Shown piece by piece: positions 12,220 through 54,064 of a DNA stretch of 64,000 nucleotides. The stretch is taken from assembly GCA_910584975.1 (NCBI GenBank), contig CAJUEA010000001.1, positions 127,127-191,126 of the forward strand, read 5' to 3'. This stretch comes from an uncultured Christensenella sp. (GTDB taxonomy: Bacteria > Bacillota > Clostridia > Christensenellales > UBA3700). Below the pieces are notes generated by a model. The model saw only the letters and a program-made list of their open reading frames with translations. It was not told the origin of the DNA and did no database searches. The position numbers and the translations under genes are program-made. Position 1 is the first letter of the stretch. The number at the start of each line of letters is the position of its first letter.

Positions 12220-12258
12220 AATAACACATCAAAAGAGAAATTCTTTTGATGTGTTATT
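12220..12258. terminator. Bidirectional terminator hairpin between convergent genes
   Basis: 16-bp perfect stem AATAACACATCAAAAG (12220-12235) / CTTTTGATGTGTTATT (12243-12258), A-run before and T-run after. Confidence 0.8.
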
Positions 12259-12367
12259 TTAGTATCGATTTTTGAATGTTTTATGCAATAAAAAGCAAAG
12301 TTTTGATTGTTATTTTGTTTGCATATATGTGTATGTGGTTGCATTTAAAATGAATGCGATAATTATT

Positions 12368-13081
12368 TTATGCACCTATTACATTGCTGACTTTGTCGGC
12401 TTTAATGCCTTTTTGTTTGTAAAACTCAAGTATTTTTGGAAGTGCCTCTGCAGTGCATTTTGTTGGATGCATAAGCACTAAATCGCCGTATGCAATTTTT
12501 TTGGTTGCACGCTCAAAAATAAGTTCGGTGTTTTTATCTCGCCAGTCAATGGTATCTTTTGACCACATTATTGTTTGATAGCCCAAATTGTTTGCAGCTT
12601 TGAGTGTATCGGCAGAAAAAGCCCCAGAAGGTGGTGCAAACAAATTCATTTTGTAACCAATAGTTTTTTCCACAATGTTGTGACACATTGAAATTTCACG
12701 CAAGTTTGCCTCCATATCCAGTTTGTCTTGGTCTTTATGCAAATATCCGTGATTTGCAATTTCGTGTCCACGACTCAAAATTTCTTTTAGCATAGCATCA
12801 TTTTTCGCAACCCAAGAGCCACCAACAAAAAAAGTTGTTTTAACTTCATATTTGTCAAAGGTATCCAGCATATCAGGCAAAAACTCTTCTCCCCAGTAGA
12901 CATTTACCATAAGCGAAACGCTACTGTTTAGTCCATTGCCCTTGTAAATAGGTTTTGGAGTGGCACTTGCAGTTATTGCAAGTGGAGTAAAACACATAGT
13001 AAGCACGGCAAGGCTCACCAATACAATCGCGATAATGCTGTTGGTTAAAAGTTCTTTATGTTTCATATTATCTCCTAACAC
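12368..13081 (-). CDS. Polysaccharide deacetylase (NodB homology domain), PdaB-like
   Basis: N-terminal TM/signal; VNVYWGEEFLPDMLD…TFFVGGSWV…GHEIANHGYLH…LFAPPSG pattern resembles sporulation-type PdaB deacetylases (from memory). Confidence 0.75.
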   Translation of the reverse strand: MLGDNMKHKELLTNSIIAIVLVSLAVLTMCFTPLAITASATPKPIYKGNGLNSSVSLMVNVYWGEEFLPDMLDTFDKYEVKTTFFVGGSWVAKNDAMLKEILSRGHEIANHGYLHKDQDKLDMEANLREISMCHNIVEKTIGYKMNLFAPPSGAFSADTLKAANNLGYQTIMWSKDTIDWRDKNTELIFERATKKIAYGDLVLMHPTKCTAEALPKILEFYKQKGIKADKVSNVIGA

Positions 13082-13083
13082 CT

Positions 13084-13112
13084 AAAATGCTTTTTGTGGG
13101 TATCCCGTAACT
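13084..13112 (-). repeat. Partial copy of the interspersed intergenic repeat family (D-type unit) in the 5' UTR of the deacetylase gene
   Basis: Minus-strand read AGTTACGGGATACCCACAAAAAGCATTTT parallels GATTACGGGGTCCCCACAAAATAGCTTTTT (revcomp of 57.4 kb copy) and GTAATTGGACTCCCACAGAATAGTTTTTT (37.5 kb). Confidence 0.45.
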
Positions 13113-13514
13113 AATTATATGTGTGATAGGATAAAATTAGACTAAAAAGAGAATACTTTTAATTAAAGTGAATTACGGATAAAAATTTTACTTTTGTGTA
13201 TGCATTAAAATAATTTGCATTTTTTGAAATTTGCTTTTTGTTGGCGTTTGTAAAAAAATATTTTTTTATCCAAAAACTTTACTTTATAATAAAAATAATG
13301 TATAATTATATCGTATAAACTGGCAGACTTTTTTTGTGATTAACTTGAGATTTTTTGAGTTAATTGAGGGATGTTGCAAGTAAAATAGCATTAAACGCTT
13401 AAAATATCTTGCTTTATTGATTAGTTTGTCTGTTTTGCAACAATAATTGTGTATTAAAAGCAAATTGTTTAAGGCAGGCTAGACTATTGGCATATTGTCG
13501 CAATTTGCCATAAA

Positions 13515-14834
13515 TTGCAGAATTTGGAATTTGCAAAAGATAAGAAATTTGTTGGGGATATTGGAGATTTAATTTTGGATAATAAAATTATTTATTTTGA
13601 CAGTGGACTTAAGTTGATTCACAAACAAATGCAAGGCGTAAGGTCTGTGGCAATTGGCGTGATGGTTGCTGTTGGCAGCGTGAGTGAAAACGAGCAAAAC
13701 AATGGTATTTCTCACTTTATTGAACACATGATGTTCAAAGGCACAAGCAAGCGTTCTGCTTTTGATATTGTGTGTGAAATTGATGGGCTTGGTGCACAAG
13801 TGAATGCCTACACATCAAAGCAATCAACCTGTTACTACACAATCAGTGTGGATGAATATGCAGAAAATTGCATGGAAATTATGAGTGATTTTTTGTTTAA
13901 TTCCACATTTGACCAAGTGGAAATGGACAAGGAAAAGGGGGTTGTGCTTGAGGAAATTGCAATGAGCGAGGACACTCCTGATGACCTATGTTTGGAGAAT
14001 TTGGCAAGTGCTTACTACAAAGGTAGCAACTTGGGCTATACAATTCTTGGAAATGCTGAAAATATCCGTAATTTTAAAACAGCTGATTTGAAAGATTACA
14101 TCAACAGCAGATATAGTGCAGGCAATATGGTTGTTTCTGTTGTGGGAAATATTTCCGAACAAAAAGCAACAGAGTTGGTATCTAATTATTTTGATAAAAA
14201 TGTGTTTAAAGGTGGCTATAAAATGCAAAAGCAAAGCCACACACCAAAATGCGATAGCGTGGTTACAGTCAAACCACTTGAGCAATCCAACATTGCCATT
14301 GCTTTTCCAAGTTTGGAGTTTGGTGCGCAAAACTATATGTCTTTGCTTGCCTTGAATTCTGCGTTTGGTGGTGGAATGAGCTCTCGACTATTTCAAGAGG
14401 TTAGGGAAAAGAGTGGGCTTGCCTACAATGTCTATTCTTATCCTTCTGCATATTATGGCGATGGAGTGTTTTCAATTTATCTTGGCACAAACCCAAAAAC
14501 AACTGAACAAGCACTTCGCAGCATAAAGCAGGAAATAATCAAGTTGAAAAATAATGGCTTGGGCGAAGATGAACTTGCAAGAGTCAAAAAGCAGTTGAAA
14601 GGCAACTATGCTTTGTCGCAAGAAAGCTCTGCAGCTTTGATGAGAGTGTATGGCAGAAATGCATTGTTTTTGGATGAATATTTTGATTTTGACCAAAAAA
14701 TTGCAGAAATTGACCAAATAACTCAAGATAGTGTGATGGATATTATCAATTACATTTTTGATTTTGACAAAGTTGTAACAAGTTATGTGGGCAAGGAAAT
14801 CAATTTTGACCCATTAAAAATTATTAAAGATTAA
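13515..14834 (+). CDS. M16 family (pitrilysin/insulinase-like) zinc peptidase
   Basis: HFIEHMMFKG = HxxEH zinc motif; two-lobed M16 length; start is TTG with no clear RBS, so the 5' end is uncertain. Confidence 0.85.
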   Translation: MQNLEFAKDKKFVGDIGDLILDNKIIYFDSGLKLIHKQMQGVRSVAIGVMVAVGSVSENEQNNGISHFIEHMMFKGTSKRSAFDIVCEIDGLGAQVNAYTSKQSTCYYTISVDEYAENCMEIMSDFLFNSTFDQVEMDKEKGVVLEEIAMSEDTPDDLCLENLASAYYKGSNLGYTILGNAENIRNFKTADLKDYINSRYSAGNMVVSVVGNISEQKATELVSNYFDKNVFKGGYKMQKQSHTPKCDSVVTVKPLEQSNIAIAFPSLEFGAQNYMSLLALNSAFGGGMSSRLFQEVREKSGLAYNVYSYPSAYYGDGVFSIYLGTNPKTTEQALRSIKQEIIKLKNNGLGEDELARVKKQLKGNYALSQESSAALMRVYGRNALFLDEYFDFDQKIAEIDQITQDSVMDIINYIFDFDKVVTSYVGKEINFDPLKIIKD

Positions 14835-14853
14835 CTATAAAAACAGGTGTGAT

Positions 14854-15228
14854 ATGGATAAATTGGATGAGATTTTTATGATGCAAAAGGCTTTTCAAGA
14901 TGACTTGATTAAAAACAGACATCTTGAGAATATCAAGCCAAATGAATGGATTCAAAAGCAAACTCTTGCAATGATAAGTGAGCTTGCAGAAGTGCTTGAT
15001 GAGGTCAATTTTAAATGGTGGAAAAACGAAAAGCCTATTAACGAGGATGCCGTGAAAGAGGAACTTGTGGATATTTTGCATTTTTTTGTTAGTATGTGCT
15101 TGAGTTATGGTATGACAGCTGAAGAATTGCACGCAATTTATCTTAAGAAAAACAAAGAAAATTTTGATAGACAATACGGAAAATCTGCAAAACAAGGTTA
15201 CGATTTAGGGCAAAATAAAAATAATTGA
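14854..15228 (+). CDS. All-alpha NTP pyrophosphohydrolase, dimeric dUTPase-like (dUTPase_2/MazG-like)
   Basis: 124 aa; pattern …QKQTLAMISELAEVLDEVNFKWWK…VKEELVDILHFFVSM… resembles dimeric dUTPase family from memory. Confidence 0.55.
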   Translation: MDKLDEIFMMQKAFQDDLIKNRHLENIKPNEWIQKQTLAMISELAEVLDEVNFKWWKNEKPINEDAVKEELVDILHFFVSMCLSYGMTAEELHAIYLKKNKENFDRQYGKSAKQGYDLGQNKNN

Positions 15229-15419
15229 TATTAGTATTAATTCAATTATAATTGATATTGGTGAAATTATTTTGGCAAGTTTAGTAAGAAATAAACACTT
15301 TCATTTTAAATTATTTGTCAAACAATATATTTTTCAATGAAGAATCATTAAAAAAATTGCATTTTCAAAAATGGCAACAAACAAAAAATGTTTGAAGTAA
15401 AAACTCTTAGTGAGGGGTT

Positions 15420-18400
15420 ATGGCTAGGAATAACAAAGAAAAAGGAAGAAATGACCATATAATAGAAGGTAGTATAATGCTTGGTATCGGTATAGTTTTT
15501 ATGTTGATACTAGTTGGTGCGTTCGGCAAGGCAGGCAAAGCTGTAACTGACTTTTTTGTCGGCACTTTTGGCTATGCTGTTTATGCTTATTTTTTGGCAT
15601 TGATTATAATAGGGATTTTAACAATTTGCAAGGTTAAAAGACCAAAAATAAAATTGTTGAGACTTTTGTCATTGCTTATGTTTTTTGCAATGGTAATTGC
15701 ACTTTTACATTGCGTTTCATCCTCACAAATTGCAGATAATGGCTATGGAAAATATTTGAGTGATTGTTATAATCTGCACAACACTGCTGGTGGCGTGCTT
15801 GCAGGATTGTTTTTGTATCCACTTTTGCTTGTAGACTTTATGGGTGTGGTGCTTTGTGGAATAATTGCAATGATTTTTGGTGCAATATTTGTGTTTTATG
15901 ATACAATTATTGCAAATTTGAATGTCAAAAACAAAGAGCAATCTGCAAAAATGGTTGATTTTGGTGGAGAGTATGGCATTGTTGAGGAGGAGATTGTCGG
16001 AAACAATCTTCTTGTGGAAGAAGTTGATGTTAAAGACAAGAAAAAACAAAACAACAATGAGGAATATGTTTCATTAGAAGAGGAAAATACAAGCAAAATT
16101 GACCTAGGACTATTTGACAATTACACAATAAATTCAGCAACAAGCCTAAGCGATAGAGAAACTGTTTTGTCTGAAAAAGACAAAAAGAACAGGCGTGATA
16201 CTGCTTTTGAAATTTTGTATGGCGACAGCAGTAAAAAGCAAACAGAGGAGATTGCTCAGGAAAAGCCTGTGCTTGACATTGGCAACAATTCGGAATATCA
16301 AAGCTATACAAATGACTATCGTAAGCGCCAAGTTATTGATGGCTTGCACTCAACTGAAAATGAGTTGTTTTCTGCCAATAAAAATGAAATTGCAAACAAA
16401 GATAACAAAAATGATTCTTCAGCTAAAAAAAATGATTTGAAAGATACTTTTGGCGCAATAAATAATGCTCAAAATGCTGAAAAAGACATGGCTGAAAACA
16501 AAGTGGATGTGCAAGAGAGCAAGCAAGAAAATAAACTTTCTGCTTATGAAGAGTTTATTCGCAAAAACAATCAATCTGCCTTTGGTGGGGAGCAAAAAGA
16601 AGAGCAAAATAGTGCTCAGAAAAAATCCGTTCAAAAACCTGCCGAAAAGCCTGTGTTTGAAACAAAGTATGAGAGAATTGAACCAGTAGTTAATAAAGAG
16701 GTTGAGCAAATCAAAGAGGAGAAAATTGATATTGTCTCTGGCAAGTTTGACGATATGCCTGTTGAAGACAAAACTGCAACTCACAATGAAATTGACGGCT
16801 TTGAATATCTTTTGAAACATCAAAGGGAAGAGCGAGATAGAAAAGATAATGAAATTTTTGAAAGACGCCATAATTTGAGAAACAGCGAAATTGCAGAAAA
16901 TACAGACGAGACTGAAAACAAGTTTGCAGAAATCGAAAGAAAACGCAAAGAAAGAAGTGACAAAGGCGGAGTTCATAATTCATCAAGCAAGCAGTTTGAT
17001 AAGGATGTATTGGAGGATCTTTCTGCAAAGGTGGAGGAAAAGCAAATTCAAACTAACTTGGTAGAGCAAACTGCCACAAAAGAAATCGAGCAGAGTAAAC
17101 CTATTTTTGAGCAAAAGGTTGCACCACAACCTAAGCCAGTAGAGGTGGAAAAAGTTAGCGAAGAGGTGAAAAAACAGAAAACAAGAGTGAAACTTGCACC
17201 TTACAAATTCCCTCCAATTGAGCTTTTGAAAGATTATGACAGCAAACCATCTGCAAGCGAAAACTTTGACGACAAAATTGAAATTTTGGAAACAACATTG
17301 TCAGAGTTTGGTATTGATGCAAAAGTCAACAATGTTGTAACAGGTCCAACTTTTTCAAGATTGGAGCTTGTTATGCCAAAAGGTATTCCTGTAAAAAGAG
17401 TGCTTAGCTATGTTGATGACATTGCAATGTGTCTTGAGGTAAAAAGTGTAAGATGTCAAATCCCAATTCCGGGCAAAAACGCTTTTGGTGTGGAAATTCC
17501 AAATAGTGTAAGGGGTAAGGTTGGACTTAAATCTGTCATTCAATCAGAAAAATTTGCTCACAACAAACATAAACTTGCTTTTGCCGTAGGACAAAACTGC
17601 GACGGCGAAAACTTTGTGGCAGATCTTGCTGCAATGCCTCATTTGCTGATTGCAGGTGCAACAGGTGCTGGTAAGTCTGTTTGCTTAAATTCTTTGATTG
17701 TCTCATTAATTTACAAGTACACCCCAGAGGAAATGAAAATTCTTTTGGTTGACCCTAAGCAAGTTGAACTTAATATGTACAACAGAATTCCACATATGCT
17801 TATCCCTGAGGCAGTGAGTGATAAGGATAAAACTTTGAATTTGCTGGATTGGGCTATTGAGGAAATGGAGTTGCGTTACACAATGTTTAAAGATAGAAGG
17901 GTGCAAAAAATCACTGACTACAACGCAACAATTGATCCTAAAAAAGAAGACAAATTGCCATATATCGTCATTATTATTGATGAGGTAGGCGACTTTATGA
18001 TGGTTATGAAAAAAGAGCTTGAGGAAAGAATTGTTCGTCTTACTCAAAAAGCAAGAGCAGCAGGTATTCACTTGATTCTTGCCACTCAAAGACCATCCGT
18101 GGATGTTATCACTGGTGTCATCAAAGCGAATTTGCCTGCAAGAATTGCGTTTGCAGTTGCAAGTTTCCCTGACAGTAAGACTATTCTTGACCAAGGTGGT
18201 GCAGAAAAACTTTTAAGATACGGCGATATGATTTTCTCTGACGGCGTAAACGACCCTGAAAGATTGCAAGGCACTTTGATTGAAGGAGAGGAAGTTAACG
18301 CAATTTGCGATTATGTTCGTGCAAACAATGAGTGCTATTTTGATAAGGATATTGAAGAATTTATTCTTAACACAAACACAAATACAACTGCAAATGCTGC

Positions 18401-18659
18401 GCAAACAACCTTTGGCGAAAGCTCAGGCGAGCAAGATGATTTGTTTGTTCGTGCACTTTTCAATGTAATCAGTACAGGTGCAGTAAGCATTTCAAAATTG
18501 CAAAGGAAGTTTGGTATTGGGTTCCCAAGAGCTGCAAGATTGGTTGATACAATGGAAGAACTTGGCTATATTGGTGCTGCAAAAGATAACAAACAAAGAG
18601 AAATTTTGATTGATATGCCAACATTCTTGTCAAAGTATGGCGATGTTAGCTTGGAGTAA
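15420..18659 (+). CDS. ftsK: DNA translocase FtsK/SpoIIIE
   Basis: N-terminal 4-5 TM helices, long K/E/N-rich linker, motor domain with Walker A GATGAGKS, Walker B IIIDE, LILATQRPSVDVITG, C-terminal winged-helix gamma domain (ISKLQRKFGIGFPRAARLVDTMEELG). Confidence 0.95.
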   Translation: MARNNKEKGRNDHIIEGSIMLGIGIVFMLILVGAFGKAGKAVTDFFVGTFGYAVYAYFLALIIIGILTICKVKRPKIKLLRLLSLLMFFAMVIALLHCVSSSQIADNGYGKYLSDCYNLHNTAGGVLAGLFLYPLLLVDFMGVVLCGIIAMIFGAIFVFYDTIIANLNVKNKEQSAKMVDFGGEYGIVEEEIVGNNLLVEEVDVKDKKKQNNNEEYVSLEEENTSKIDLGLFDNYTINSATSLSDRETVLSEKDKKNRRDTAFEILYGDSSKKQTEEIAQEKPVLDIGNNSEYQSYTNDYRKRQVIDGLHSTENELFSANKNEIANKDNKNDSSAKKNDLKDTFGAINNAQNAEKDMAENKVDVQESKQENKLSAYEEFIRKNNQSAFGGEQKEEQNSAQKKSVQKPAEKPVFETKYERIEPVVNKEVEQIKEEKIDIVSGKFDDMPVEDKTATHNEIDGFEYLLKHQREERDRKDNEIFERRHNLRNSEIAENTDETENKFAEIERKRKERSDKGGVHNSSSKQFDKDVLEDLSAKVEEKQIQTNLVEQTATKEIEQSKPIFEQKVAPQPKPVEVEKVSEEVKKQKTRVKLAPYKFPPIELLKDYDSKPSASENFDDKIEILETTLSEFGIDAKVNNVVTGPTFSRLELVMPKGIPVKRVLSYVDDIAMCLEVKSVRCQIPIPGKNAFGVEIPNSVRGKVGLKSVIQSEKFAHNKHKLAFAVGQNCDGENFVADLAAMPHLLIAGATGAGKSVCLNSLIVSLIYKYTPEEMKILLVDPKQVELNMYNRIPHMLIPEAVSDKDKTLNLLDWAIEEMELRYTMFKDRRVQKITDYNATIDPKKEDKLPYIVIIIDEVGDFMMVMKKELEERIVRLTQKARAAGIHLILATQRPSVDVITGVIKANLPARIAFAVASFPDSKTILDQGGAEKLLRYGDMIFSDGVNDPERLQGTLIEGEEVNAICDYVRANNECYFDKDIEEFILNTNTNTTANAAQTTFGESSGEQDDLFVRALFNVISTGAVSISKLQRKFGIGFPRAARLVDTMEELGYIGAAKDNKQREILIDMPTFLSKYGDVSLE

Positions 18660-18740
18660 TATTGCATAAGCAAAAAAATGTTGCAATAAATTTGCTTTAA
18701 CAGAAAATTAAATTTTATTTCAAAATACGAGAGGAAAAGA

Positions 18741-20066
18741 TTGAAAAAGATAGGTGTAATTTCGCTTGGTTGCGATAAAAACAGAATAGATACGGAAAAT
18801 ATGCTTGCTTTTTTGGAAGAAGAAGGATATGTTTTTACAGGCGACCCAAAAGACAGCGACATTATTATTGTAAACACTTGCGCATTCATTGACAGCGCAA
18901 AGCAAGAGTCTATAGATACCATTTTGGAGATGAGTGATTTCAAACAAAATGGCAAATGCAAATGTCTTGTTGTCAGTGGATGTTTGAGCCAAAGGTATAT
19001 GGATAGTTTGGTGGAGGAGCTGCCTGAGGTTGATATTTTTGTTGGAACTGCAAATTATCGTGAATTGCCAGAACTTATTAAAGATTTTATGAATAATCAT
19101 TCAAAAATCGCTATTAAAAACGAAATTAACAAAAGAGATTTTACAAAAAAGAGAGTTTTGACAACACCTTATCACTATGCATATCTTAAAATTGCTGAAG
19201 GTTGCAACAATAATTGTACATATTGCGCCATACCAAAAATTCGTGGAAAATTTACCTCAAGACCAATGGAGGAAATAACCTCTGAGGCAAAAGATATTAT
19301 TGAAAAATATGGCGTAAAAGAGCTTAATCTTGTTGCTCAAGATATCACAAGATATGGCAAGGACTTGTATGGAGAGCTTAAACTTGTTGAACTTATCGGC
19401 GAACTTGAAAAGCTAGATTGCAGTTGGATTAGGCTTTTGTACTGCTATCCAGAGCTTGTAACGGACGAGCTTATTAGCAAAATCAAAAACAGCCAAAAGG
19501 TTGTTAAATATATAGATATCCCAATGCAACACGCATCTGACAATATCTTAAAAAGAATGAACAGGCATGTGAGACAACAATTTTTGCAAGACTTAATTGA
19601 CAAATTGCGTGCACAAATTCCAGATATCGTTATTCGAACAACATTTATTGTTGGATTCCCAGGAGAAACAGAGCAAGATTTTGAAATTTTGTATAACTTT
19701 GTTCAAAAAAATGCCTTTGACAAATGTGGATTTTTTGCTTATTCAAGGGAGGATGGCACTCCTGCATATGATTTTGAAAATCAAGTGGATGAGGATATAA
19801 AGCAACAAAGAGTTTCTATGCTTTATGAATTGCAAGAAGAAATTATGGCTGAAAAATCAAACGCCATGATTGGCAAAATTGTGGATGTTATGTATGAACA
19901 GGTGGATTTTGACAGCCAATGTTTTGTTGGCAGAATGGCAGAAGATGCGCCTGAAATTGACAGAGTTGTTTACTTTACTTCAACTGAACCTGTGGATATC
20001 GGAGGAATGTACAAAATAAAGATTACGGAAAAAATAGGCTTGGATTTAAAAGGAGAATTAGTATGA
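18741..20066 (+). CDS. rimO: Ribosomal protein S12 methylthiotransferase RimO (MiaB family radical SAM)
   Basis: N-terminal UPF0004 cysteines (LGCDKN…VNTCAF…GCL), radical SAM CNNNCTYCAIP, C-terminal TRAM; TTG start after GAGAGGAAAAGA. Confidence 0.85.
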   Translation: MKKIGVISLGCDKNRIDTENMLAFLEEEGYVFTGDPKDSDIIIVNTCAFIDSAKQESIDTILEMSDFKQNGKCKCLVVSGCLSQRYMDSLVEELPEVDIFVGTANYRELPELIKDFMNNHSKIAIKNEINKRDFTKKRVLTTPYHYAYLKIAEGCNNNCTYCAIPKIRGKFTSRPMEEITSEAKDIIEKYGVKELNLVAQDITRYGKDLYGELKLVELIGELEKLDCSWIRLLYCYPELVTDELISKIKNSQKVVKYIDIPMQHASDNILKRMNRHVRQQFLQDLIDKLRAQIPDIVIRTTFIVGFPGETEQDFEILYNFVQKNAFDKCGFFAYSREDGTPAYDFENQVDEDIKQQRVSMLYELQEEIMAEKSNAMIGKIVDVMYEQVDFDSQCFVGRMAEDAPEIDRVVYFTSTEPVDIGGMYKIKITEKIGLDLKGELV

Positions 20067-21557: not shown

Positions 21558-21661
21558 GAATTTGTTATCTGTAGTGAATAAAAAAGTCTGAAAAGTTAAA
21601 AAATACAATAGAAAAATCAAATAACCTTTCGAAAATCGGGGTTAAATAAAGAGGAGAATGT

Positions 21662-22699: not shown

Positions 22700-22907
22700 A
22701 TATTTTGAAAAAGCAGGTTAAACACAATTTTTTGATGGTATCAAAATTATGTTTTGCATTATGGATGTTGTATTGTTTTTGCAATTTATCAAAAATTGCA
22801 AATGCGTGTATTTTTTTGATATAAAACTAATTTCAATTTGTTTTTTATTGTTTAATAAATAAAATTTGGCTTTTGATTTGCAAAAAAATAAAATACAACA
22901 AAAGGTA

Positions 22908-22936
22908 TTGACATTATTGCTATTTTGCAGTATTAT
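22908..22936 (+). promoter_or_regulatory. Sigma-70-type promoter upstream of rny
   Basis: TTGACA (22908-22913), 17-nt spacer, TATTAT (22931-22936). Confidence 0.55.
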
Positions 22937-24616: not shown

Positions 24617-24648
24617 AAAAGACAGAGCATTGCGCCCTGTCTTTTTTA
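24617..24648 (+). terminator. Rho-independent terminator after rny
   Basis: Stem AAAAGACAG (24617-24625) / CTGTCTTTT (24637-24645) with T-run; a second hairpin AAAAGGCGAAC/GTTCGCCTTTT lies at 24684-24708. Confidence 0.75.
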
Positions 24649-24890
24649 ATGCAAAAATTATGTTTAGCGTTAATGTTTTGATAAAAAGGCGAACATTGTT
24701 CGCCTTTTTGACATTTAAGATAATTTTATTATCACTTAATATTTTAAATTAAAAAACATACAAGTTTATTTTTTTAATTCTAAAATTAATAAATACAATC
24801 AAATTGAAAAAACACATTAGCGTTTTAGTGCCGATTTTTGAATTGTTTTTGACAAAATTTCTATTCATTAAGAATTTATTGTTTAAAAAA

Positions 24891-30717: not shown

Positions 30718-31058
30718 TTTAAACTCCTGAAATAAGTAAATAGTAGTTTTAATTTTTTTGTATTGCTTGTTTTCTCAAACATTTACAATAACTACGCCAT
30801 TATTATAATATAAAATAATTATTATTTCAAGTCATTTGAGGCTGTTTTTGCAAAATATTATTCTTTTTATTTTTTTGTCACAAAAAGACGAATTAAAGTA
30901 AACTTTATCATAATTTTAAAGGAATTTTTTGGGAATATAAATGCAAAAATCTTTTTTTAATTTTAAAATCTGCATTAATCAAGCATTAAAAAATAATAGT
31001 GTGCAATAAAACAAATAATTTTGCAAAAATTTCTTATACTAACACAAAGGAGGTGCAT

Positions 31059-32034: not shown

Positions 32035-32931
32035 ATGGAAAGGATTTTGGAGTATATAGCTAACGATAATTGCACTGTGGAAAAATTGCTTAAAAGCAAA
32101 GGTTATTCCAGCAGAATATGCAATTTATTAAAAAAAGAACTGGGCTTGGTGTGTGTGAATGACAAGCCTGTTTTTGTTACTGCAAAGGTGGAAAGTGGAG
32201 ATAAAATTAAAGTAATTTTAAAAGAAAACCCTTCGAAAATCGACCCATTTGATTGTTTTGTGGATATAATTTATGAGGATGAAGATATTGCAATAATAAA
32301 CAAGAATGCAGGAATTGCTGTTATTGCAACCAATGCTCATTATGGCAAAAGTCTTATGAATGCACTTGCCAATGTGTGGGGAGATTTTGTTTTTCATCCT
32401 GTAAATAGGTTGGATAAAGGCACAAGTGGAGTTATGATTGTAGCAAAAAATGCTCTTTCGCATAGTATATTATCAGCGAGAATTGCAGAGGATAAGCAAA
32501 AGATACAAAAAAATGTGCAAAGAGAATATCTTGCATTGGTGCATAACTTTGGCGATATTTTAACAGGTGAGGGAGAAATTGTTGCAGATATTGGCATACC
32601 TTTTGGCAATAGCCTTGTAAGAGGAGTTGTGAGAGAAGGTGGCAAATATGCAAAAACATATTACAAAGTTTTGCAAAGTTGTGAGCAGTTCAGTTTGGTA
32701 AGACTTGTGCTTGCAACAGGCAGAACACATCAAATAAGGGTGCATATGTCGCACATTGGACACCCACTTTTGGGAGATGATTTGTATGGAGGCAAGCTAG
32801 ATTTGATTGAACGCCCAGCATTGCACAGTGAAAAAATTTCTTTTTGCCATCCAATAACAGGAGAAAAAATGGAGTTTATCGCACCACTTCCTGATGATAT
32901 GCGTGATATTGTAGATAAAATATTAAAATGA
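32035..32931 (+). CDS. RluA-family 23S rRNA pseudouridine synthase with N-terminal S4-like domain
   Basis: NRLDKGTSGVMIVAK catalytic Asp motif, GRTHQIRVHM. Confidence 0.85.
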   Translation: MERILEYIANDNCTVEKLLKSKGYSSRICNLLKKELGLVCVNDKPVFVTAKVESGDKIKVILKENPSKIDPFDCFVDIIYEDEDIAIINKNAGIAVIATNAHYGKSLMNALANVWGDFVFHPVNRLDKGTSGVMIVAKNALSHSILSARIAEDKQKIQKNVQREYLALVHNFGDILTGEGEIVADIGIPFGNSLVRGVVREGGKYAKTYYKVLQSCEQFSLVRLVLATGRTHQIRVHMSHIGHPLLGDDLYGGKLDLIERPALHSEKISFCHPITGEKMEFIAPLPDDMRDIVDKILK

Positions 32932-42187: not shown

Positions 42188-42218
42188 AATTTCAAATTAT
42201 CCGTCGAAAATCGGCATT

Positions 42219-42256
42219 AAAATACCTGTGTTTAGCAAAAGCACAGGTATTTTGCT
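42219..42256 (+). terminator. Rho-independent terminator
   Basis: AAATACCTGTG (42220-42230) / CACAGGTATTT (42242-42252) then T-run. Confidence 0.8.
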
Positions 42257-44019: not shown

Positions 44020-44206
44020 ATTTATGGTAATGCAATTTTGTAAGAACAAACAATAAGTGATTAAAATAGCATTTCGCTTTTGGAAATAAGAAATTATTTA
44101 AAATGTTAATTTGGTTTTAGATTTACAAATTCGATTGAAATGACAAAATTTGCATTAAATATTTGTTTGTATTAGCAAAAAACTGGTGCTACAAAGGGGA
44201 GAGATT

Positions 44207-45778: not shown

Positions 45779-45795
45779 GTTGAATAAAGATAAAT

Positions 45796-45832
45796 AAAAA
45801 CAGGTATTGCGTATGTCATACCTGTTTTTTGT
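45796..45832 (+). terminator. Rho-independent terminator
   Basis: AAAAACAGGTAT…ATACCTGTTTTTT. Confidence 0.8.
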
Positions 45833-46055
45833 TTATCAGCTAAACAGAAAAAGCGAGATTATAAAATACTTGGTGTCAACTTAACTCGCTAATTAATAAT
45901 TTCACTACTTTTAAATTAGTGCTTAACAAAAAAATTTAAATTTTTGTCTAAATATTAAATAATATCGATTTTTGAATGGTTATTTTGTTGTTTTTACAAC
46001 TTTAGATTGCACATAACTTCATTTTTGTTCGTAAAAATCAAATTGTTAAATTGCA

Positions 46056-47093: not shown

Positions 47094-47373
47094 AACTTCC
47101 TCCAAAAAGCATTTTTTGAGAAAAATTTTCTATAATTTCATTATACAACATAAAAATTTAAAAGTAAACACAATTTTTTGTATATTATTTGTTAAAAAAT
47201 CCTATCAAAAATGTGTTGTTTTTCCCTTAGACTAAAATTTAAGTAAATAATATATAATTATCATAATAAAATATTCTAAAAATGTAAACTAAATGCAAAA
47301 AATTGTCCGTTTGTGAACTATAATAAAAGTATCACTTTTAAAGTGAAATACTTTTTTTATGGAGGACCATATT

Positions 47374-48300
47374 ATGGTTTATAAACAATGGTGCAGTGAG
47401 TGGCTTAACTGCTATGTAAAGCCACAAGTAAAGGAGAGGACATACGCTAAGTATTGTCAATTGGCAAATAGTCATATTTTGCCTGAGCTTGGAGATTATC
47501 ATTTGGATGAATTATCAACAAATGTACTTCAACATTTTGTCAACAAAATGCAAAACATCGGTTATGCAAGCACGACAATTCACGGGTTTATTTCCCTTAT
47601 CAAGTTGTCGCTTGTAAAAGCAGTTGAGCTTAACATCGTGGACAAAGAATATTCCAACTATTTATCTCGCCCAAAAACAAAAATTAAGCGTGTGGAATGC
47701 TTTTCTCTTCAAGAGCAACGCAAGATAGAAGACTATGTTGTTGATTACGGCAATCCAAAAAGCTTTGGTGTGCTTTTGACATTGTATACTGGCATTCGCA
47801 TTGGAGAATTGCTTGCCTTGAAATGGGTGGATTGCGATATGAAACGCGGAATAATCAAAGTGTCAAAATCTTGTCACGACAGCTGGAATGAAAATGGGTA
47901 TTTGAAGATAATTGATACACCTAAAACATTAAATTCTGTGCGTGTTATTCCAATGCCAAAGCAACTGGTGCCTTATCTGAAGATGATGCGTCGCAATGCA
48001 AAAAATGAATTTGTTGTTCCGGGTAGGAGCAGGTATGGTGCAGAGGTAAGAACTTATCAAAGATATTTTGAAAATTTGCTTGCAGAACTGAAAATCAACC
48101 ACAAGGGGTTTCACTCTTTGAGGCACACTTTTGCAACCAGAGCACTGGAGTGTGGTATGGATGTCAAAACTTTGTCGGAAATTCTAGGACACGCAAATCC
48201 AACAGTTACATTAAACAGATATGCGCATTCTATGTTCGACCACAAAACTTCTATGATGAATAGGGTAGGCAAATTGTTAAGAGATAAGGGGCAAGGATAA
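47374..48300 (+). CDS. Tyrosine recombinase / phage-type integrase (lone)
   Basis: N-terminal SAM-like core-binding domain; catalytic-type motifs TGIRIGELLAL, HSLRHTFATR, GHANPTVTLNRYAH; ATG 47374 follows GGAGGA (alt. 47359). Confidence 0.85.
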   Translation: MVYKQWCSEWLNCYVKPQVKERTYAKYCQLANSHILPELGDYHLDELSTNVLQHFVNKMQNIGYASTTIHGFISLIKLSLVKAVELNIVDKEYSNYLSRPKTKIKRVECFSLQEQRKIEDYVVDYGNPKSFGVLLTLYTGIRIGELLALKWVDCDMKRGIIKVSKSCHDSWNENGYLKIIDTPKTLNSVRVIPMPKQLVPYLKMMRRNAKNEFVVPGRSRYGAEVRTYQRYFENLLAELKINHKGFHSLRHTFATRALECGMDVKTLSEILGHANPTVTLNRYAHSMFDHKTSMMNRVGKLLRDKGQG

Positions 48301-48395
48301 ATATACAGTACAAAATCTTAATATCTTTATTGATTTAACTATTTGCAAATTAAGGCGAATAGTATTTTTTTCTTTTTTAGGGCGAAATTCCCCCC

Positions 48396-48424
48396 TTGAC
48401 TTTTACAATCTTATAGGCTATTAT
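48396..48424 (+). promoter_or_regulatory. Sigma-70-type promoter upstream of the second metallophosphoesterase
   Basis: TTGACT (48396-48401), 17-nt spacer, TATTAT (48419-48424). Confidence 0.5.
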
Positions 48425-48536
48425 AGATGTGTAATAAAATTTATGTTTAAGTTTATTTGTGCATTTGGAAGTTAGCTTTTTGCACGATAAATGTTGTTTT
48501 TAACATGTGAAATTTTATGTTTGACTTGGAGGGAAA

Positions 48537-49871
48537 ATGCTTACAGAAAAAAATAAAAAGTTAATTTACATAATAAGTGGTATTTTAAGCGTGTTGTTGC
48601 TTGCAATAATTGTGACAGCTTGCGTTTTGTTTATACCACTTAAAGGTAAAAAATATGAGGATATTTGGGCTGGACCACAACAAGAATATGTCCTTGCAGA
48701 GGATAGTGTGATTGTTGAGAAACAGGCAGATAAAGATTTTGTAATTTTGCAACTTACTGATATGCAACTTTGGACGAGCAGTAAAGATAATAATGCAGCG
48801 TTTGAAATTGCAGAGCAAACAATCAAAAAAACAAATCCTGATTTGGTTGTTTTTACAGGCGACAATGTGTCAGGTGTGGGTGTCCCTGAACTTTTAAAAG
48901 TGTTTATCAAACAAATTGAGGAGCTAGCTCAAAAATACAACTTTTTGTGGGCACCTATTTTTGGTAATCACGACAATGAAATGAGGGCTACACCAAACTG
49001 GTCAGGCGACCAATATCTGAAAGTGTCAAGAGAGAATGGGGGACATTGCTTATTTCGCAAAGGTCCAACAAACTTAGGCGATAAGTATGGAAATTTGCTG
49101 GGTAATTATGTTATCAATGTTAAAGAAGGCGAACAAATTGTTCAATCTTTGTATATGCTTGACAACAGTGCTTATGCAAAATATGAAAAAAGTGTTGTGG
49201 ATGCAGCAAAAGAAAGCGAAGGCAGAAGCAATGCAGAACGCCCATTCCCTTACGCTCAGATAGAATGGTGCAAATGGCAAGCAAACAATATAAATGCGAT
49301 TGCAAACAAGCAAGTTCCAAGCATATTTTTCACTCATTGTGCACCTTATGAAATGGGCGATGTGATAAGGAAATATGTTGCAGGTGCAAATGGCAAAGTT
49401 GATGGTCAGCCAAGTGAAAATGCTAACTCTGACGATTTGGTAATGCAAGATCCAGAAGGCTATTGGACATTGCCGGGTGGTTATATAAGCAGTGAAGGAA
49501 ATGATCAGCCAAGCTTTAAGCCTGCAAGCGATGTTCAGTTGGATTATCCTGTTATTGATGGCAAGCAGTTGAAAGGTATTGCAGGAAGAATAAAATATGT
49601 GCCAGGACACGCATTGTACAATACAGGAATGGTTGACGCAATGAAATCATTGGGCTTGAAAGGTTGGTTTGTTGGCCACGACCACGAAAATGATATTATT
49701 TTTGAATATGATGATGTGATTTATGGTTATGGCTTGAAAGCAGGACCATCCCCAAAACCTTGGAATGGCAGTTATTTCTTTGGTGGAACAACTATTGTTA
49801 TGGATAGCAATGGCAATATAACTCCAAAACATGTGCAATTTATAAAAGCCGAGGATTATTGGAAAAAATAA
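48537..49871 (+). CDS. Membrane-anchored/secreted metallophosphoesterase
   Basis: N-terminal TM helix; motifs LTDMQ, TGDNVSG, GNHDNE, FTHCAP, GHDHEND. Confidence 0.75.
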   Translation: MLTEKNKKLIYIISGILSVLLLAIIVTACVLFIPLKGKKYEDIWAGPQQEYVLAEDSVIVEKQADKDFVILQLTDMQLWTSSKDNNAAFEIAEQTIKKTNPDLVVFTGDNVSGVGVPELLKVFIKQIEELAQKYNFLWAPIFGNHDNEMRATPNWSGDQYLKVSRENGGHCLFRKGPTNLGDKYGNLLGNYVINVKEGEQIVQSLYMLDNSAYAKYEKSVVDAAKESEGRSNAERPFPYAQIEWCKWQANNINAIANKQVPSIFFTHCAPYEMGDVIRKYVAGANGKVDGQPSENANSDDLVMQDPEGYWTLPGGYISSEGNDQPSFKPASDVQLDYPVIDGKQLKGIAGRIKYVPGHALYNTGMVDAMKSLGLKGWFVGHDHENDIIFEYDDVIYGYGLKAGPSPKPWNGSYFFGGTTIVMDSNGNITPKHVQFIKAEDYWKK

Positions 49872-49885
49872 TTTGCAAAACAATT

Positions 49886-49928
49886 AAAAAACAAGCACCA
49901 CAATTTAATTTGAGGTGCTTATTTTTAT
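49886..49928. terminator. Hairpin between convergent genes (probable bidirectional terminator)
   Basis: AAGCACC (49893-49899) / GGTGCTT (49914-49920) flanked by A- and T-runs. Confidence 0.55.
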
Positions 49929-49937
49929 TTAATGTTT

Positions 49938-50699
49938 TTATTTGCTCTGTTCAGTGGTGACTGCTTGTAAATTTTCGCTTATTTCTGCAATTTCAGTCTC
50001 ATTTTGTTGTTTGTCGATGTTGGTTGAAGAAGTTTCGTTTTTCACAGGCATAGAATTATTTTGTTTGTTTTCGATATAATTAATTTGATTATCCAATGCC
50101 AAATTTTGTTTAGTTTGCTCATTTAATTGCTCAATGTCTTTATCAGTTGTGGTTTTGCTATCCATTTTGTCAAACACAAATTTTTTCAAAGGATAATAAA
50201 GTATAAACAGCAAGACGGCATTGATTGCAACCACAATTGGTTGTGAAGTTAAGCGTGTCAGCCAAAATGCTGCAAAAGTTTTGCTGCTGCCACCTGCTGA
50301 AGCAATAAGCCAAGTGCCAAGAGTTGACAAGCCCATTGTACAAATAAACAAGCTTAACACAATTGATATTGCTAGTTTGATAAAAGGATGAATTTTTTTT
50401 ATCATAAAAATTAATCCTGGGATAACACCAATCAGCATACATGATATCAAGATAACAGGCGATGGCGAATATCCTTTTGTGATAGCACCCAGCAAATCTC
50501 CACATAATCCAACAATTCCACCAGAAATCGGACCTAAAAACATTCCTGCGACAAAACAAGGGATATAGGTAAATGCTATTGAAAGATAGCCAATATCCAG
50601 TGCAACAGTGTTAAGCACCATATCCAGTGCAATAAGAATCGCCGTATAGGCAATAATAAGTGAGCGGCGTTTGTTAAGCTTAAAATTATACTTTGTCAT
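49938..50699 (-). CDS. folT: ECF-transporter S component, folate-family (FolT-like), with ~70-aa polar C-terminal tail
   Basis: Six hydrophobic helices; directly preceded by a THF riboswitch; ATG 50699 follows AGGAGGT. The tracked ORF start (50861) reads through the riboswitch and is rejected. Confidence 0.7.
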   Translation of the reverse strand: MTKYNFKLNKRRSLIIAYTAILIALDMVLNTVALDIGYLSIAFTYIPCFVAGMFLGPISGGIVGLCGDLLGAITKGYSPSPVILISCMLIGVIPGLIFMIKKIHPFIKLAISIVLSLFICTMGLSTLGTWLIASAGGSSKTFAAFWLTRLTSQPIVVAINAVLLFILYYPLKKFVFDKMDSKTTTDKDIEQLNEQTKQNLALDNQINYIENKQNNSMPVKNETSSTNIDKQQNETEIAEISENLQAVTTEQSK

Positions 50700-50754
50700 A
50701 AAAAAAGTACCTCCTAAATTGTTGGAGAGTACCGAGAAAATTATTGTGCAATAA

Positions 50755-50856
50755 CTTGCCTCGGATGTGAAATACAACCGCAGAGGGAAAATCCTCTTTC
50801 GTCCATAGTCAACATCCCGTTCTATGGCACTTAACGCTGCATTTCTACTCAGCAAA
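50755..50856 (-). promoter_or_regulatory. THF (tetrahydrofolate) riboswitch, THF-I class
   Basis: Minus-strand read GCUGAGUAGAAAUGCAGCGUUAAGUGCCAUAGAACGGGAUGUUGACUAUGGACGAAAGAGGAUUUUCCCUCUGCGGUUGUAUUUCACAUCCGAGGCA aligns block-for-block with the remembered Eubacterium siraeum folT aptamer (GAGUAG…GCGUUAAGUG…GGGAUGU…ACGAA…GCGGU…CAUCCG), with compensatory pairing (AAAUGCA/UGUAUUU, CCAUAG/CUAUGG, AGAGG/CCUCU). Confidence 0.85.
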
Positions 50857-51064
50857 AACATTGTAGCATATAAAAACTAATTATGGCAAGTGTTTTGAGA
50901 GATAATTGCACAAAAAGCACTCACAAATCTTGCTAGGGGGGTTAAGATATTGCTATTACCACATGTTTTAAATGCCTTTGTTGACAACTTTGCGTTTTTA
51001 TTATATAATAAATATAATTCAAAGTTTTTATTAAGATAATTTGCATATTTAAATAAGGATAAAA

Positions 51065-51388
51065 ATGAACGATTTTGATAAAAAAGTTTATGAGGTTGTA
51101 AAAAGTATTCCTGTGGGATATGTTATGAATTATGCAATGGTGGCAGAACTTGCAGGCTATCCAAGATGTGCAAGGCATGTGGGCAGAGCATTGCATAATA
51201 ATCCCGACCCTGCCAATATCCCTTGTCATAGGGTGGTTATGAAAGACGGCAGTCTTACCCCTGCATTTGCCTTTGGTGGAGAGGGAGAGCACAGAAGAAG
51301 ACTGGAAAATGAAGGTATTACTTTTGTCCACGACAAAGTCGATATGAAGGTGCATTTGTTTGATATAGTGCAACTTTTGCAAAAATAA
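51065..51388 (+). CDS. MGMT-family protein (methylated-DNA-protein-cysteine methyltransferase DNA-binding/active-site domain only)
   Basis: 107 aa; IPCHRVV active-site-type motif. Confidence 0.8.
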   Translation: MNDFDKKVYEVVKSIPVGYVMNYAMVAELAGYPRCARHVGRALHNNPDPANIPCHRVVMKDGSLTPAFAFGGEGEHRRRLENEGITFVHDKVDMKVHLFDIVQLLQK

Positions 51389-51393
51389 GGCTA

Positions 51394-51441
51394 TTGTCAT
51401 TATGAGAGTTGAGGTGTATAAGGAAGAATCTTCGACTTGGC
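51394..51441 (+). repeat. Single copy of the interspersed intergenic repeat family
   Basis: TTGTCATTATGAGAGTTGAGGTGTATAAGGAAGAATCTTCGACTTGGC parallels 54932-54980 and the 37.2-37.7 kb units. Confidence 0.7.
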
Positions 51442-51627
51442 TTGTTAGGTATGATAAAGACAAACATTGTTTTTAAATTATTGTGTAAATTTTGATTTAA
51501 TTGGTAATTAAATGTCTAAAAAGCGAAGATTAGTTATTTGTTTTGCTACATTGCAAACAAATTTTATTTGGAGATAAAAATTCATTTGCTAAAGATAAAA
51601 ATTTTTAAGGATAGTATGGTTTGAGGT

Positions 51628-52518
51628 ATGAAAAAACACATTTTGCTAACGACTGCTGTTTTAATGATTTCTGCATCAATTGTTTTAAGTGGATGTAGCA
51701 GCAACAAAATTATGAAAAGTTTGATGGAAAAAGGCTATTTTTCAAATAGCTATGATAATGCAATATCTCAAACAGATATTGCAGGGATGATTTCTTCTCA
51801 TTTTGAAAGTTCAACCAGTAAAAGTGTAAAAAAGAAAAAGGCAATTTTGATTACTATTGATGGTATGAGAGCAGAAGGGTTAACTCACATTATGGAAAGT
51901 GACCTTGGAATGTCTCAGATTTCAAAAGACGGAGGATTGTATTGGACAAAGCCAGCAAATCTAAATAGTAAGGCAAAAGTTGATGAGGGTGTCAATTTTT
52001 TGAGTATCGTAACTGGCACAGAGCCTTCTGAGTTTGGTGTTTTGAAAAGCACTGATGTAAAAAGAGAGTTGCCATATTCTATAATGACAAAAGTTGCAGA
52101 AAAATATAATGTTAAATTTTTGACAGACAATAAAAACTATGCAAACAAACATCTTGCAGAGGAGTTTGTTGCAAAGCAATCACAAAAACTTTCGGTGGTT
52201 ACAAACAATGAACTTAATCAGTTGAGGGCAGATTGCTTGAAAAGTTTGGATAACAATGATTTTATTATGGTGGCAATTTCAAATCCTTACGATGTTGCAG
52301 CAGGAAATTTCAAACTTAGCAACGAAAGTTATCTTTCTGCAATCATACATTTAAACTATTATATTTCAGAGCTTTATGAACAAGTGAAATTGCGTGCAAC
52401 TGAAGATTGGCTTTTTGTTGCCACAACAACTTGTGGTGGAAATTCAAAGCTTGCAGCAAACAATGAAGAAGGCAATATTTTGACATTTATGTTTACTAAT
52501 AAGGCTATTGAAGATTAA
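51628..52518 (+). CDS. Lipoprotein with degenerate alkaline-phosphatase/NPP-superfamily fold
   Basis: Lipobox LSGC|SS; ILITIDGMRAEG resembles the first metal-binding Asp motif of type I phosphodiesterase/NPP enzymes, but nucleophile and His motifs appear replaced (NFLSIVTGTEPSEFGV; TTTCGGN). Confidence 0.45.
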   Translation: MKKHILLTTAVLMISASIVLSGCSSNKIMKSLMEKGYFSNSYDNAISQTDIAGMISSHFESSTSKSVKKKKAILITIDGMRAEGLTHIMESDLGMSQISKDGGLYWTKPANLNSKAKVDEGVNFLSIVTGTEPSEFGVLKSTDVKRELPYSIMTKVAEKYNVKFLTDNKNYANKHLAEEFVAKQSQKLSVVTNNELNQLRADCLKSLDNNDFIMVAISNPYDVAAGNFKLSNESYLSAIIHLNYYISELYEQVKLRATEDWLFVATTTCGGNSKLAANNEEGNILTFMFTNKAIED

Positions 52519-52579
52519 TATTTTGCATAATATTTTTATTAGTCAAAAACATAATATCAATAATTAAAAAGAGGAAAAA

Positions 52580-54064
52580 ATGAAGAAAAACGCATCGAAA
52601 ATCGGTATATTTGAAAAATTTTCATTTGCAGTGGGAGAAATTTATGGCTCTGGTGGTGTGGCAATTTTGTCATTGCTGTACCTTTGGTTTTTAATAAACA
52701 TAATCAAAATACCTGCTGGAATGGCAGGTACTATTATAATGCTTGCAAGGTTTTGGGATGCATTTACTGACCCAATAATGGGCAGTGTTTCGGACAACAC
52801 AAGAACAAAATGGGGCAGACGAATTCCTTATATTTTCGCCTCTGGAATTTTGATTGTGATTGCGCTTTTTGTGCTTTTTATGCCAATTCAAGGTTGGACA
52901 AGTCTTGCTGGCAAAGTGGCTTATGTGGTGTTTGCACATTTATTTTACAGCACGGTGTCAACAATTTTTAATGTGCCATATTTGTCTTTATCGTCAGAGA
53001 TAAGTGAAAACTTGAAAGAGAGAAACTCAATGAATTTTGTGAGACTTGCAATGGGTATGCTTTCCACTGCAATTTGCTATCTTGTGATTTCTGCATTAAA
53101 AGATATGTTGATTGTGGATGAGGCGACAGGCGTTGCAAAACTTACCGAAACACAATTTGCTTTGATTGTGGCAGGAATTTTTGCAGTTATGTTTGCAGTG
53201 CCAATTTTGCTTACTGCTTTATTCTGTAAGGAAAGAACACCTCTTCCAAATGAAAAATTAAAGTTTTCTTTCAAAAACATATTGGAAACTTTCAAATTAA
53301 AGTGTTTCAGACGCCTTTTGCTAATGTATGTTTTTTCTTTTGTTTGCAACGAAATAATTGCCAATGTAATTATGATGTATGTGTTTAATGTTACAGGTGG
53401 CTCAAGCATTAAAATTGCAGGTTTTTCTTTGTCTGCAATTGCAAATATGTCAATGTTGCTTGGTGCAGCTGTTATAATGCCTGTTTCTTTCACGATGTTG
53501 CAAAAAAAGGTGGCAAAGCCAGTGATTTTTATGTGTGGTATCCCTATGTTTGTGATTGGTGCGATAGGGTTGGCAGCTTTTCCAACCAACACAACTATGC
53601 CTGCATTGATAATTCTTCCACTTGCTATTGCAGGGCTTGGCTTTGGTATGGCACAAATGATTCCGTGGCTTGTTTTCCCTGATGTTTGTGATGTGGCAGA
53701 GCTTAAGTCAAATGACAGAAATCCGGGTGCGTACAACAGCACAATGACTTTCTTCAAAAAGTTTGCTTCAGGTGTTGCAGTGTTGATTGTTGGTTGGGTA
53801 TTGCAAGGTTTTGGCTATGACGAGCAACTTGGCACAAACGCTTTGCAACCTCAAAGTGCAGTTTTAGGAATGAGGTTGATTTTGGGCGTAAGCATTCCAT
53901 TGTGCTTGATTGTTGCATTTGTCGGTGCATTTATGATAAAAATTACCACTAAAAAGAGTGAAAGAGTAAGATATTTTGTGGAAAAACAACGCAAAAATGA
54001 ATTGGAAAACTTGTGTGAGGAAGAAAAAATGGAACTAGAGACTTTGAAAAAGGAGTTGTTTTAA
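52580..54064 (+). CDS. MFS transporter of the glycoside-pentoside-hexuronide (GPH):cation symporter family
   Basis: 12 predicted TM helices; GPH-type motif RFWDAFTDPIMGSVSDNTRTKWGRRIPY. Confidence 0.8.
   Translation: MKKNASKIGIFEKFSFAVGEIYGSGGVAILSLLYLWFLINIIKIPAGMAGTIIMLARFWDAFTDPIMGSVSDNTRTKWGRRIPYIFASGILIVIALFVLFMPIQGWTSLAGKVAYVVFAHLFYSTVSTIFNVPYLSLSSEISENLKERNSMNFVRLAMGMLSTAICYLVISALKDMLIVDEATGVAKLTETQFALIVAGIFAVMFAVPILLTALFCKERTPLPNEKLKFSFKNILETFKLKCFRRLLLMYVFSFVCNEIIANVIMMYVFNVTGGSSIKIAGFSLSAIANMSMLLGAAVIMPVSFTMLQKKVAKPVIFMCGIPMFVIGAIGLAAFPTNTTMPALIILPLAIAGLGFGMAQMIPWLVFPDVCDVAELKSNDRNPGAYNSTMTFFKKFASGVAVLIVGWVLQGFGYDEQLGTNALQPQSAVLGMRLILGVSIPLCLIVAFVGAFMIKITTKKSERVRYFVEKQRKNELENLCEEEKMELETLKKELF

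Follow-up and report, generated by a model that had tools for sequence, protein, structure and literature searches.

The DNA uptake sequences (DUS) of Neisseriaceae and the uptake signal sequences (USS) of Pasteurellaceae consist of a 10-mer core within weaker AT-rich flanks that extend over about 30 bp. We analysed a motif of the same build, with the core TCRAAAATCG, in a 64,000-nt stretch of an uncultured Christensenella sp. genome (contig CAJUEA010000001.1, positions 127,127 to 191,126; hereafter "the window"), and among known systems its genomic behaviour appears, by analogy, most like that of uptake sequences. Like these, the motif occurs in both orientations genome-wide, while its copies within genes are biased in direction and frame (PMC2346458). 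Further points of likeness are the strong over-representation, the lineage-restricted "dialect" that is missing from outgroups and viral contigs, the enrichment between genes and near terminators, the placement of intragenic copies in tolerant protein segments, the copies that adjoin recA and recN, an origin in place and the even spacing of copies in the window. Even spacing has been reported for the Haemophilus USS. The motif differs from uptake sequences in that inverted pairs forming terminators, typical there, are absent here, in its density (about one copy per 6 kb versus about one per kb) and in its host, a Gram-positive-type anaerobe, from a group not known for sequence-specific uptake.

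Other dispersed elements are more distant. The Noc-binding sites (NBS), the SlmA-binding sites (SBS), the matS sites of MatP and the parS sites of ParB are likewise conserved, scattered over coding and non-coding DNA and independent of transcription, but they are palindromic, number tens per genome rather than hundreds and show chromosome-scale territories, whereas the motif is seen here on the window and on contigs. Repetitive extragenic palindromes (REPs), bacterial interspersed mosaic elements (BIMEs) and other short intergenic repeats, the cyanobacterial HIP1 among them, are short, highly iterated and lineage-specific as well. They too favour gene 3' ends and spacers of the convergent or same-direction type and shun divergent promoter regions. 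REPs, however, are imperfect palindromes in inverted pairs accompanied by REP-associated tyrosine transposases (RAYT), whereas the motif is asymmetric and single at each site.

The motif is a real, conserved and dispersed DNA element that was previously undescribed; a search of the available literature by motif sequence returned primers and unrelated matches only. The reading we favour, at a probability of about 0.5 on the sequence patterns described below, is that it serves as a lineage-specific recognition sequence in double-stranded DNA, kept genome-wide for a putative protein or protein machine.

Over-representation and consensus of the motif

TCRAAAATCG occurs ten times in the window (seven copies on the plus and three on the minus strand), while 100 dinucleotide-preserving shuffles of the window gave an expectation of 0.39 and a maximum of two. 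This bears out the original prediction, made from the letters of the window, that less than one occurrence would arise by chance; the nine cores listed there were correct in position and strand, and one further copy at 1146-1155(+) in relA had been missed. A 12-mer with at most one mismatch gave 12 matches versus 2.63 expected. Over-representation was measured on the window and on the contigs of relatives, including recA-anchored loci that were fetched irrespective of motif content, and the density in this genome and its close relatives is about one copy per 6 kb.

Sites were pooled from the window, eight loci labelled "uncultured Christensenella sp." and 105 metagenome loci (750 kb, fetched by a match to the long pattern), which yielded 130 unique sites. 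In a 19-mer pattern scan of the genome collection, 8 of the 119 loci among the matches listed came from "uncultured Christensenella sp.", the rest being mostly chance matches across phyla. A position matrix of 30 columns derived from the 130 sites placed seven window copies at 25-34 bits, in agreement with the similar flanks noted in the original prediction, and 11 copies at 12 bits or more, compared to about 0.4 per composition-shuffled window. The copies in the window are as follows:

12258..12284 (minus; core 12266-12275): convergent spacer between the gene of a 1590-aa surface protein and a polysaccharide deacetylase gene; 31.7 bits
19092..19118 (plus): inside rimO, sense, encoding the peptide NNHSKIAIKN in a variable linker; 29.6 bits
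21620..21646 (plus): cinA-recA spacer, just 5' of the recA ribosome-binding site; 30.3 bits
24824..24850 (minus): convergent spacer between rny and an EFR1-type ferredoxin gene; 31.4 bits
32224..32250 (plus): inside an RluA-family pseudouridine synthase gene, sense, degenerate 3' flank; 15.0 bits
35284..35310 (plus): codons 5-13 of the second ABC exporter gene, overlapping the stop of the first; 34.1 bits, the top score
42195..42221 (plus): 17 nt past the stop of a flavin adenine dinucleotide (FAD) oxidoreductase gene; 25.6 bits
45958..45984 (minus): between the convergent genes of a metallophosphoesterase and a PI-PLC-X domain protein; 29.6 bits
52586..52612 (plus): sense copy in an MFS_2/GPH sugar transporter gene (codons 5-10) whose 3' flank is weak; 16.7 bits
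2523..2549 (plus): sense copy within a radical-SAM gene; the core is the variant TTGAAAATCG and the 5' flank is good; 18.2 bits; probably a weak member of the motif family
1146..1155 (plus): exact core inside relA/spoT, no motif flanks; below 12 bits; probably a chance match

A chance match at 1146 is plausible because an expectation of 0.39 per window leaves room for one. The 3' flanks are weak at the copies with cores at 32233 and 52595. Two one-mismatch relatives had been proposed, of which the site at 2531 stands as the 18.2-bit copy, while the other, in the S10 region, lies at 57928-57939 and not at 57938-57949 and is probably due to chance, with the motif flanks missing and a score below 12 bits (57929), as at 1146. 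No Rfam match at the gathering threshold was found at 57.6-58.0 kb, which the original prediction called the S10 leader.

Copies in the window are spaced more evenly than random: the gaps have a coefficient of variation of 0.45-0.51 (P about 0.01-0.02), the shortest measuring 2.1-2.5 kb. Unlike the spacing of at least 2 kb in the window, two tandem copies of 34 and 37 bits lie 97 nt apart in locus L114, at 569(-) and 666(-), within a 1.3-kb stretch without an open reading frame (ORF) of 80 aa or more.

The consensus of the 130 sites spans about 27 nt, (W)AAAAA[C/A]C-NN-TCAAAAATCG-R-TAYTAAA, beyond which information drops to background, and the motif is thus not part of a longer repeat or the end of an insertion sequence. 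Flanks are graded around this one common consensus, and a search for sites by flanks only indicated that the first core base may also be A, G or C. The element contains two AAAAAYC direct repeats at 11 bp spacing (positions -9 to -3 and 2 to 8 from the first core base), the second of which overlaps the strongly conserved 10-bp core TCAAAAATCG, followed by the TAYTAAA tail. Together, the direct repeats and the tail set three A-tracts about one helical turn apart, a rough phasing that would suit a protein touching one face of bent DNA. Column mutual information over the 130 sites revealed nearest-neighbour dependence only, with no covariation or complementary positions, and therefore neither conserved base pairing nor an internal hairpin within the element. 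No Rfam family was found at any motif copy (the THF riboswitch and rRNA being the only families found), and no association of copies with tRNA genes was found.

The motif shares some letters with two known boxes: TTC-GAAAAT is common to it and the CodY box, a 15-bp palindrome (AATTTTCWGAAAATT), and TTCGA to it and the reverse-complemented 0A box of Spo0A. As had been proposed, it is nevertheless not a CodY, cre or LexA box: the dominant variant TCAAAAATCG in the 130-site consensus is asymmetric, unlike the CodY palindrome, and has no central W position, and the motif has neither the TG...CA of cre, the GAAC-N4-GTTC of LexA nor the C of TTCGNCA of Spo0A.

Core position 3 is polymorphic within the species in the copy upstream of recA, which has TCG in the window (21629) and TCA in L001 (9967). 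TCG is found in 5 of 10 copies of the window species, versus TCA in 120 of 130 clade-wide. A palindrome, TTGCAA-N7-TTGCAA, abuts the motif 5' end in L170 (about 4380-4400) and L246 (about 3730-3750) and could be the operator of an unrelated regulator.

Orientation and placement between genes

The density of the core is 13-fold higher in intergenic than in coding DNA (0.81 versus 0.06 per kb). Every window copy shares its direction with an adjacent gene, as stated in the original prediction, which took this as a possible sign of an RNA-level cis element, that is, a site for a protein or RNase or a terminator-upstream element that acts in the transcript and would hence occur in sense only. The three minus-strand copies, however, lie in convergent spacers and are therefore co-oriented with one neighbour by construction. 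The informative intergenic window copies are those at 21629 and 42204 only, and all informative window copies are in sense, as an RNA element would have it.

Outside genes in the related contigs, in which genes were called with a simple ORF caller (80-aa minimum), co-orientation did not hold. Same-direction spacers contain 33 co-oriented and 26 anti-oriented copies in the 130-site set, so that 26 of 59 are antisense, and 10 and 13, respectively, in a non-ascertained subset of 47 sites of at least 18 bits, none of which had been used to fetch loci. At least 11 anti-oriented copies lie inside operons, in short gaps that separate a stop codon from the following ribosome-binding site and leave no room for another transcript. 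When sites were grouped by flanking orthologous proteins, copies of both orientations were found to keep position and direction across species while their flanks diverge. Among the co-oriented copies conserved in this way are those that precede recA, recN, dxs, nadB and a transporter gene; the conserved anti-oriented ones include copies that precede plsX, that occupy two L197/L199 spacers or that separate mtaB-like and HIT-family genes. A convergent site common to L148, L156, L174 and L197 is conserved in position and orientation as well. A function in the sense transcript is therefore unsupported.

A strand bias relative to replication was likewise not seen: with strands assigned by GC skew, intergenic copies are split about 50:50 between the G-rich and the C-rich strand. 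This sets the motif (seven plus and three minus copies in the window) apart from Chi, the FtsK-orienting polar sequences (KOPS) and the SpoIIIE recognition sequences (SRS), which show a leading-strand skew. Of the suggestion of an oriented DNA-binding site, the DNA-binding site fits and the qualifier "oriented" does not.

Hairpins next to the motif bear on the same question. A strong hairpin lies 14-43 nt to the 3' side of the motif in 65% of convergent-spacer copies, as an RNA element would predict, and in 38% of anti-oriented cases, while co-oriented copies in same-direction spacers have a hairpin upstream (30%) more often than downstream (12%), contrary to that prediction. Both distance and side vary by context, with no fixed relation to a terminator. 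The adjoining hairpins all differ in sequence and are therefore ordinary terminators beside the motif rather than part of the element. Copies occur singly, without inverted pairs that form terminators. The claim that the TAAAA tail forms the first arm of a terminator is correct for 42218-42254, a scanner-positive terminator whose stem begins with the tail of copy 42195..42221. Copy 12258..12284 is followed by a 17-bp-stem hairpin (12220-12258) that has no T tail, and at the copy with its core at 24832 the adjoining hairpin is weak (7 bp) and a strong terminator lies at 24617-24645. No terminator-like site was found near copy 45958..45984 by the terminator scan. A composite, terminator-linked element is thus not supported, as unrelated hairpins merely adjoin the motif.

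In two species, in L157 at 12392(-) and in L224 at 12416(-), a copy lies 350-500 nt past the 5S rRNA gene in the same direction as the rRNA operon.

Sense bias inside genes

Core sites inside genes are in sense in 37 cases and antisense in one (130-site set), and in nine and one, respectively, among the non-ascertained sites. Matrix matches in coding sequence show the same bias at 20 bits or more (46:2), whereas weaker matches are at 1-3:1. Composition was rejected as the source of the bias, since composition-matched 10-mers gave 0.98:1 and words with one or two mismatches about 1.1:1. A codon-usage model of the full 26-nt pattern predicted 5-7:1 in favour of sense, because two of the three frames of the reverse complement are interrupted by TGA or TAR stops and because it calls for the rare codons YCG and NGG; coding constraint thus explains the sense bias in part. 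Sense frames give lysine-rich hydrophilic peptides (xSKIxxK, QKSxLK) at N-termini, C-termini and linkers, while the single open antisense frame encodes a hydrophobic stretch, and we infer that the bias is also due to what proteins tolerate. The different reading frames given in the original prediction (SKI, QKS, ENR/KNR) are correct, and the use of several frames in unrelated proteins, together with the position of the rimO copy in a variable linker, supports its view that selection is on the nucleic acid and not on the peptide. Known uptake sequences have an orientation bias inside genes and none genome-wide (PMC2346458).

The excess of the observed ratios over both the codon model and the weak matches favours an RNA-level element, as do the two copies that trail 5S rRNA in sense. 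Against it stand the near-even split in same-direction spacers, the operon-internal and conserved antisense copies and the lack of covariation or a conserved fold, and we regard an RNA-level element as quite unlikely.

A motif-like antisense site is found in pgsA in four relatives, at L260 8529(-), L259 6599(-), L262 5610(-) and L041 5188(+); its 3' flank is good, and its core takes the forms ACAAAAATCG, ATAAAAATCG and ATGAAAATCG. No match of 12 bits or more is present in pgsA of the window. Its conservation may be a mere reflection of the hydrophobic peptide encoded there.

Possible regulatory functions

The direct-repeat architecture with 11 bp spacing would also suit the operator of a global transcription factor, such as a tandem winged-helix protein or a response regulator that binds the AAAAAYC repeats and controls the neighbouring genes. 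Copies conserved in several species 15-50 nt before the start codons of recA, recN, dxs, nadB and the transporter gene are in line with this explanation. Promoters, however, lie in divergent spacers, while the motif is found in 17 convergent and 2 divergent spacers (130-site set; 6 and 2, respectively, for the non-ascertained sites), and many copies are intragenic or located in operons between a stop and the next ribosome-binding site. These preferences make a global-regulator operator less likely. In addition, no functional theme is common to the neighbouring genes, and a density of about one copy per 6 kb would amount to several hundred sites in each genome. Overall, we consider an operator unlikely.

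A promoter of the main or an alternative sigma factor would account for the AAC-containing 5' block and the TAAAWW 3' block about 17 nt apart and for the several copies upstream of genes, and it would naturally be co-oriented with genes. In such a promoter the best-conserved part of the motif would fall in the spacer, and TAAAWW does not end in the T that is invariant in a -10 box. The predicted start at recA and nadB would lie within or past the ribosome-binding site, copies are frequent in convergent spacers and right before terminators, and the promoter scanner found no promoter at the copies examined. A promoter function is hence highly improbable.

Lineage distribution and origin of copies

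The recA-anchored loci trace the motif to a narrow lineage. L041 and L259-L262, which belong to the same genus (RecA 90-95% identical), carry one copy per 3-7 kb, while no copy was found in the 84 kb of the same region in the four sister lineages L255-L258, which have the same gene order (RecA 79-84% identical). Close relatives carry the NCBI label "uncultured Christensenella sp.". The long motif pattern gave no match in 2.9 million viral contigs; a phage origin was rejected, since the 24 viral matches to a short pattern all lacked the 5' flank.

At rimO, the copy is conserved in L041, L224 and L259-L262, and the linker of the motif-bearing species has two extra codons and different residues compared to the motif-less L255-L258. 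The 3' part of this copy (GCTATTAAAAAC) is homologous to the motif-less sequence, and the copy therefore arose in place by point changes and a 2-codon insertion. The cinA-recA copy is found in L259 and L262 too and is degenerate in L260, and the spacer takes the following forms:

L255-L258 (motif-less): 10-20 nt
L259: 34 nt, in which the ribosome-binding site of these relatives is joined by an extra block of about 22 nt, the motif itself
L262 and the window: 93-106 nt
L260: a degenerate hairpin version

From its sequence, the block of about 22 nt in L259 looks like an insertion. A miniature mobile or REP-like insertion, in which a block of about 22-27 nt is copied by a transposase or recombinase, would explain why this spacer equals the 12-nt motif-less spacer of relatives plus a clean motif block, why several spacers hold little besides the motif, and why one copy sits exactly at the junction of a strain-specific 4.8-kb indel. 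The motif has no terminal inverted repeats, palindrome or consistent target duplication, however, the rimO copy came from point changes in place, and the Abi_2 indel (30866/30967) has no motif. The same consensus is found across species and none in viral contigs. Linkage to a transposase or RAYT was rejected, as the genes bracketed by copies are ordinary enzymes (glycosidases, transporters and similar) with no transposase seen among them. We therefore consider a mobile insertion very unlikely.

The indel junction concerns copy 12258..12284, which strains L001-L006 have kept; past the 4.8-kb indel, the strains become homologous to the window again at 12260, the 3' end of the motif copy. The gene at 7429-12201 (plus), which encodes the 1590-aa protein with a Listeria-Bacteroides repeat domain, differs among strains, and in L001-L005 its first five codons alone are left, followed by another terminator. 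A recombination-junction or cassette function, suggested by the 12260 breakpoint, was rejected as not general, since an insertion of about 1.4 kb with an Abi_2 (abortive infection) protein gene, present in some strains (L004 19334-20314, L006 and L184), has no motif at its junction. Its site in the window is 30866-30967, between transketolase genes and a polysaccharide deacetylase gene.

A candidate recognition sequence in double-stranded DNA

If recognised in double-stranded DNA, the motif would act as a genome-wide tag rather than a signal for single genes, and we infer that a protein reads it. Copies would settle where they are least harmful, in spacers after stop codons, beside terminators, within operons and in tolerant hydrophilic protein stretches, and copies of either direction would then be retained by selection or by biased-recombination drive. 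The reader could be an architectural or insulating DNA-binding protein just as well as an uptake system. A bolder and more doubtful proposal, drawn by analogy, is that the motif might be the first DNA-uptake-type self tag outside Proteobacteria, with a competent Clostridia lineage preferring DNA that carries TCAAAAATCG and phased A-tract flanks; uptake or recombination bias would in this case have driven the build-up of the motif at harmless genome positions.

Several points weigh against a recognition sequence in double-stranded DNA. It is supported by sequence data, and its reader protein is hypothetical. No Gram-positive bacterium is known to take up DNA in a sequence-specific manner. The absence of inverted pairs, unlike Neisseria or Haemophilus uptake sequences, and a density of about one copy per 6 kb, below the classical one per kb, set the motif apart from known uptake systems. 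The intragenic sense bias (37:1; 46:2 at 20 bits or more) exceeds the codon model and the weak-match background, and a residual transcription- or translation-linked constraint may be involved. Gene calls in the related contigs are crude, and at least one anti-oriented site (L224) is truly co-oriented with an rRNA operon. A literature search on uptake sequences in Clostridia found nothing relevant beyond one study (PMC2346458).

A 27-bp sequence maintained in hundreds of copies per genome would imply an abundant, undescribed sequence-specific reader in widespread, largely uncultured gut Clostridia. If the reader were a competence receptor, sequence-biased uptake would extend to Gram-positive-type bacteria and the motif would be a marker for gene flow in gut metagenomes, whereas with an architectural or insulating protein as reader it would be a chromosome-organisation signal of a new kind. 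In both cases it is of practical use as a taxonomic and core-genome marker.

Other features of the window

The window has a G+C content of 32-38% and a positive GC skew throughout. Its genes include relA, an FtsK/SpoIIIE-family gene, rimO, pgsA, cinA, recA, rny, ABC exporter genes, glycosidase genes and ribosomal protein genes, a content that points to a low-GC Clostridia organism. Its RecA protein was matched in 1551 blocks of public assemblies, and the species is therefore common. The RluA-family gene copy is found at the same site in L001 and L184. A tetrahydrofolate (THF) riboswitch aptamer lies at 50757-50854 (minus; 66.5 bits) and overlaps the 5' end of the ORF at 49938-50861, and the real start of this gene therefore lies downstream of the aptamer.

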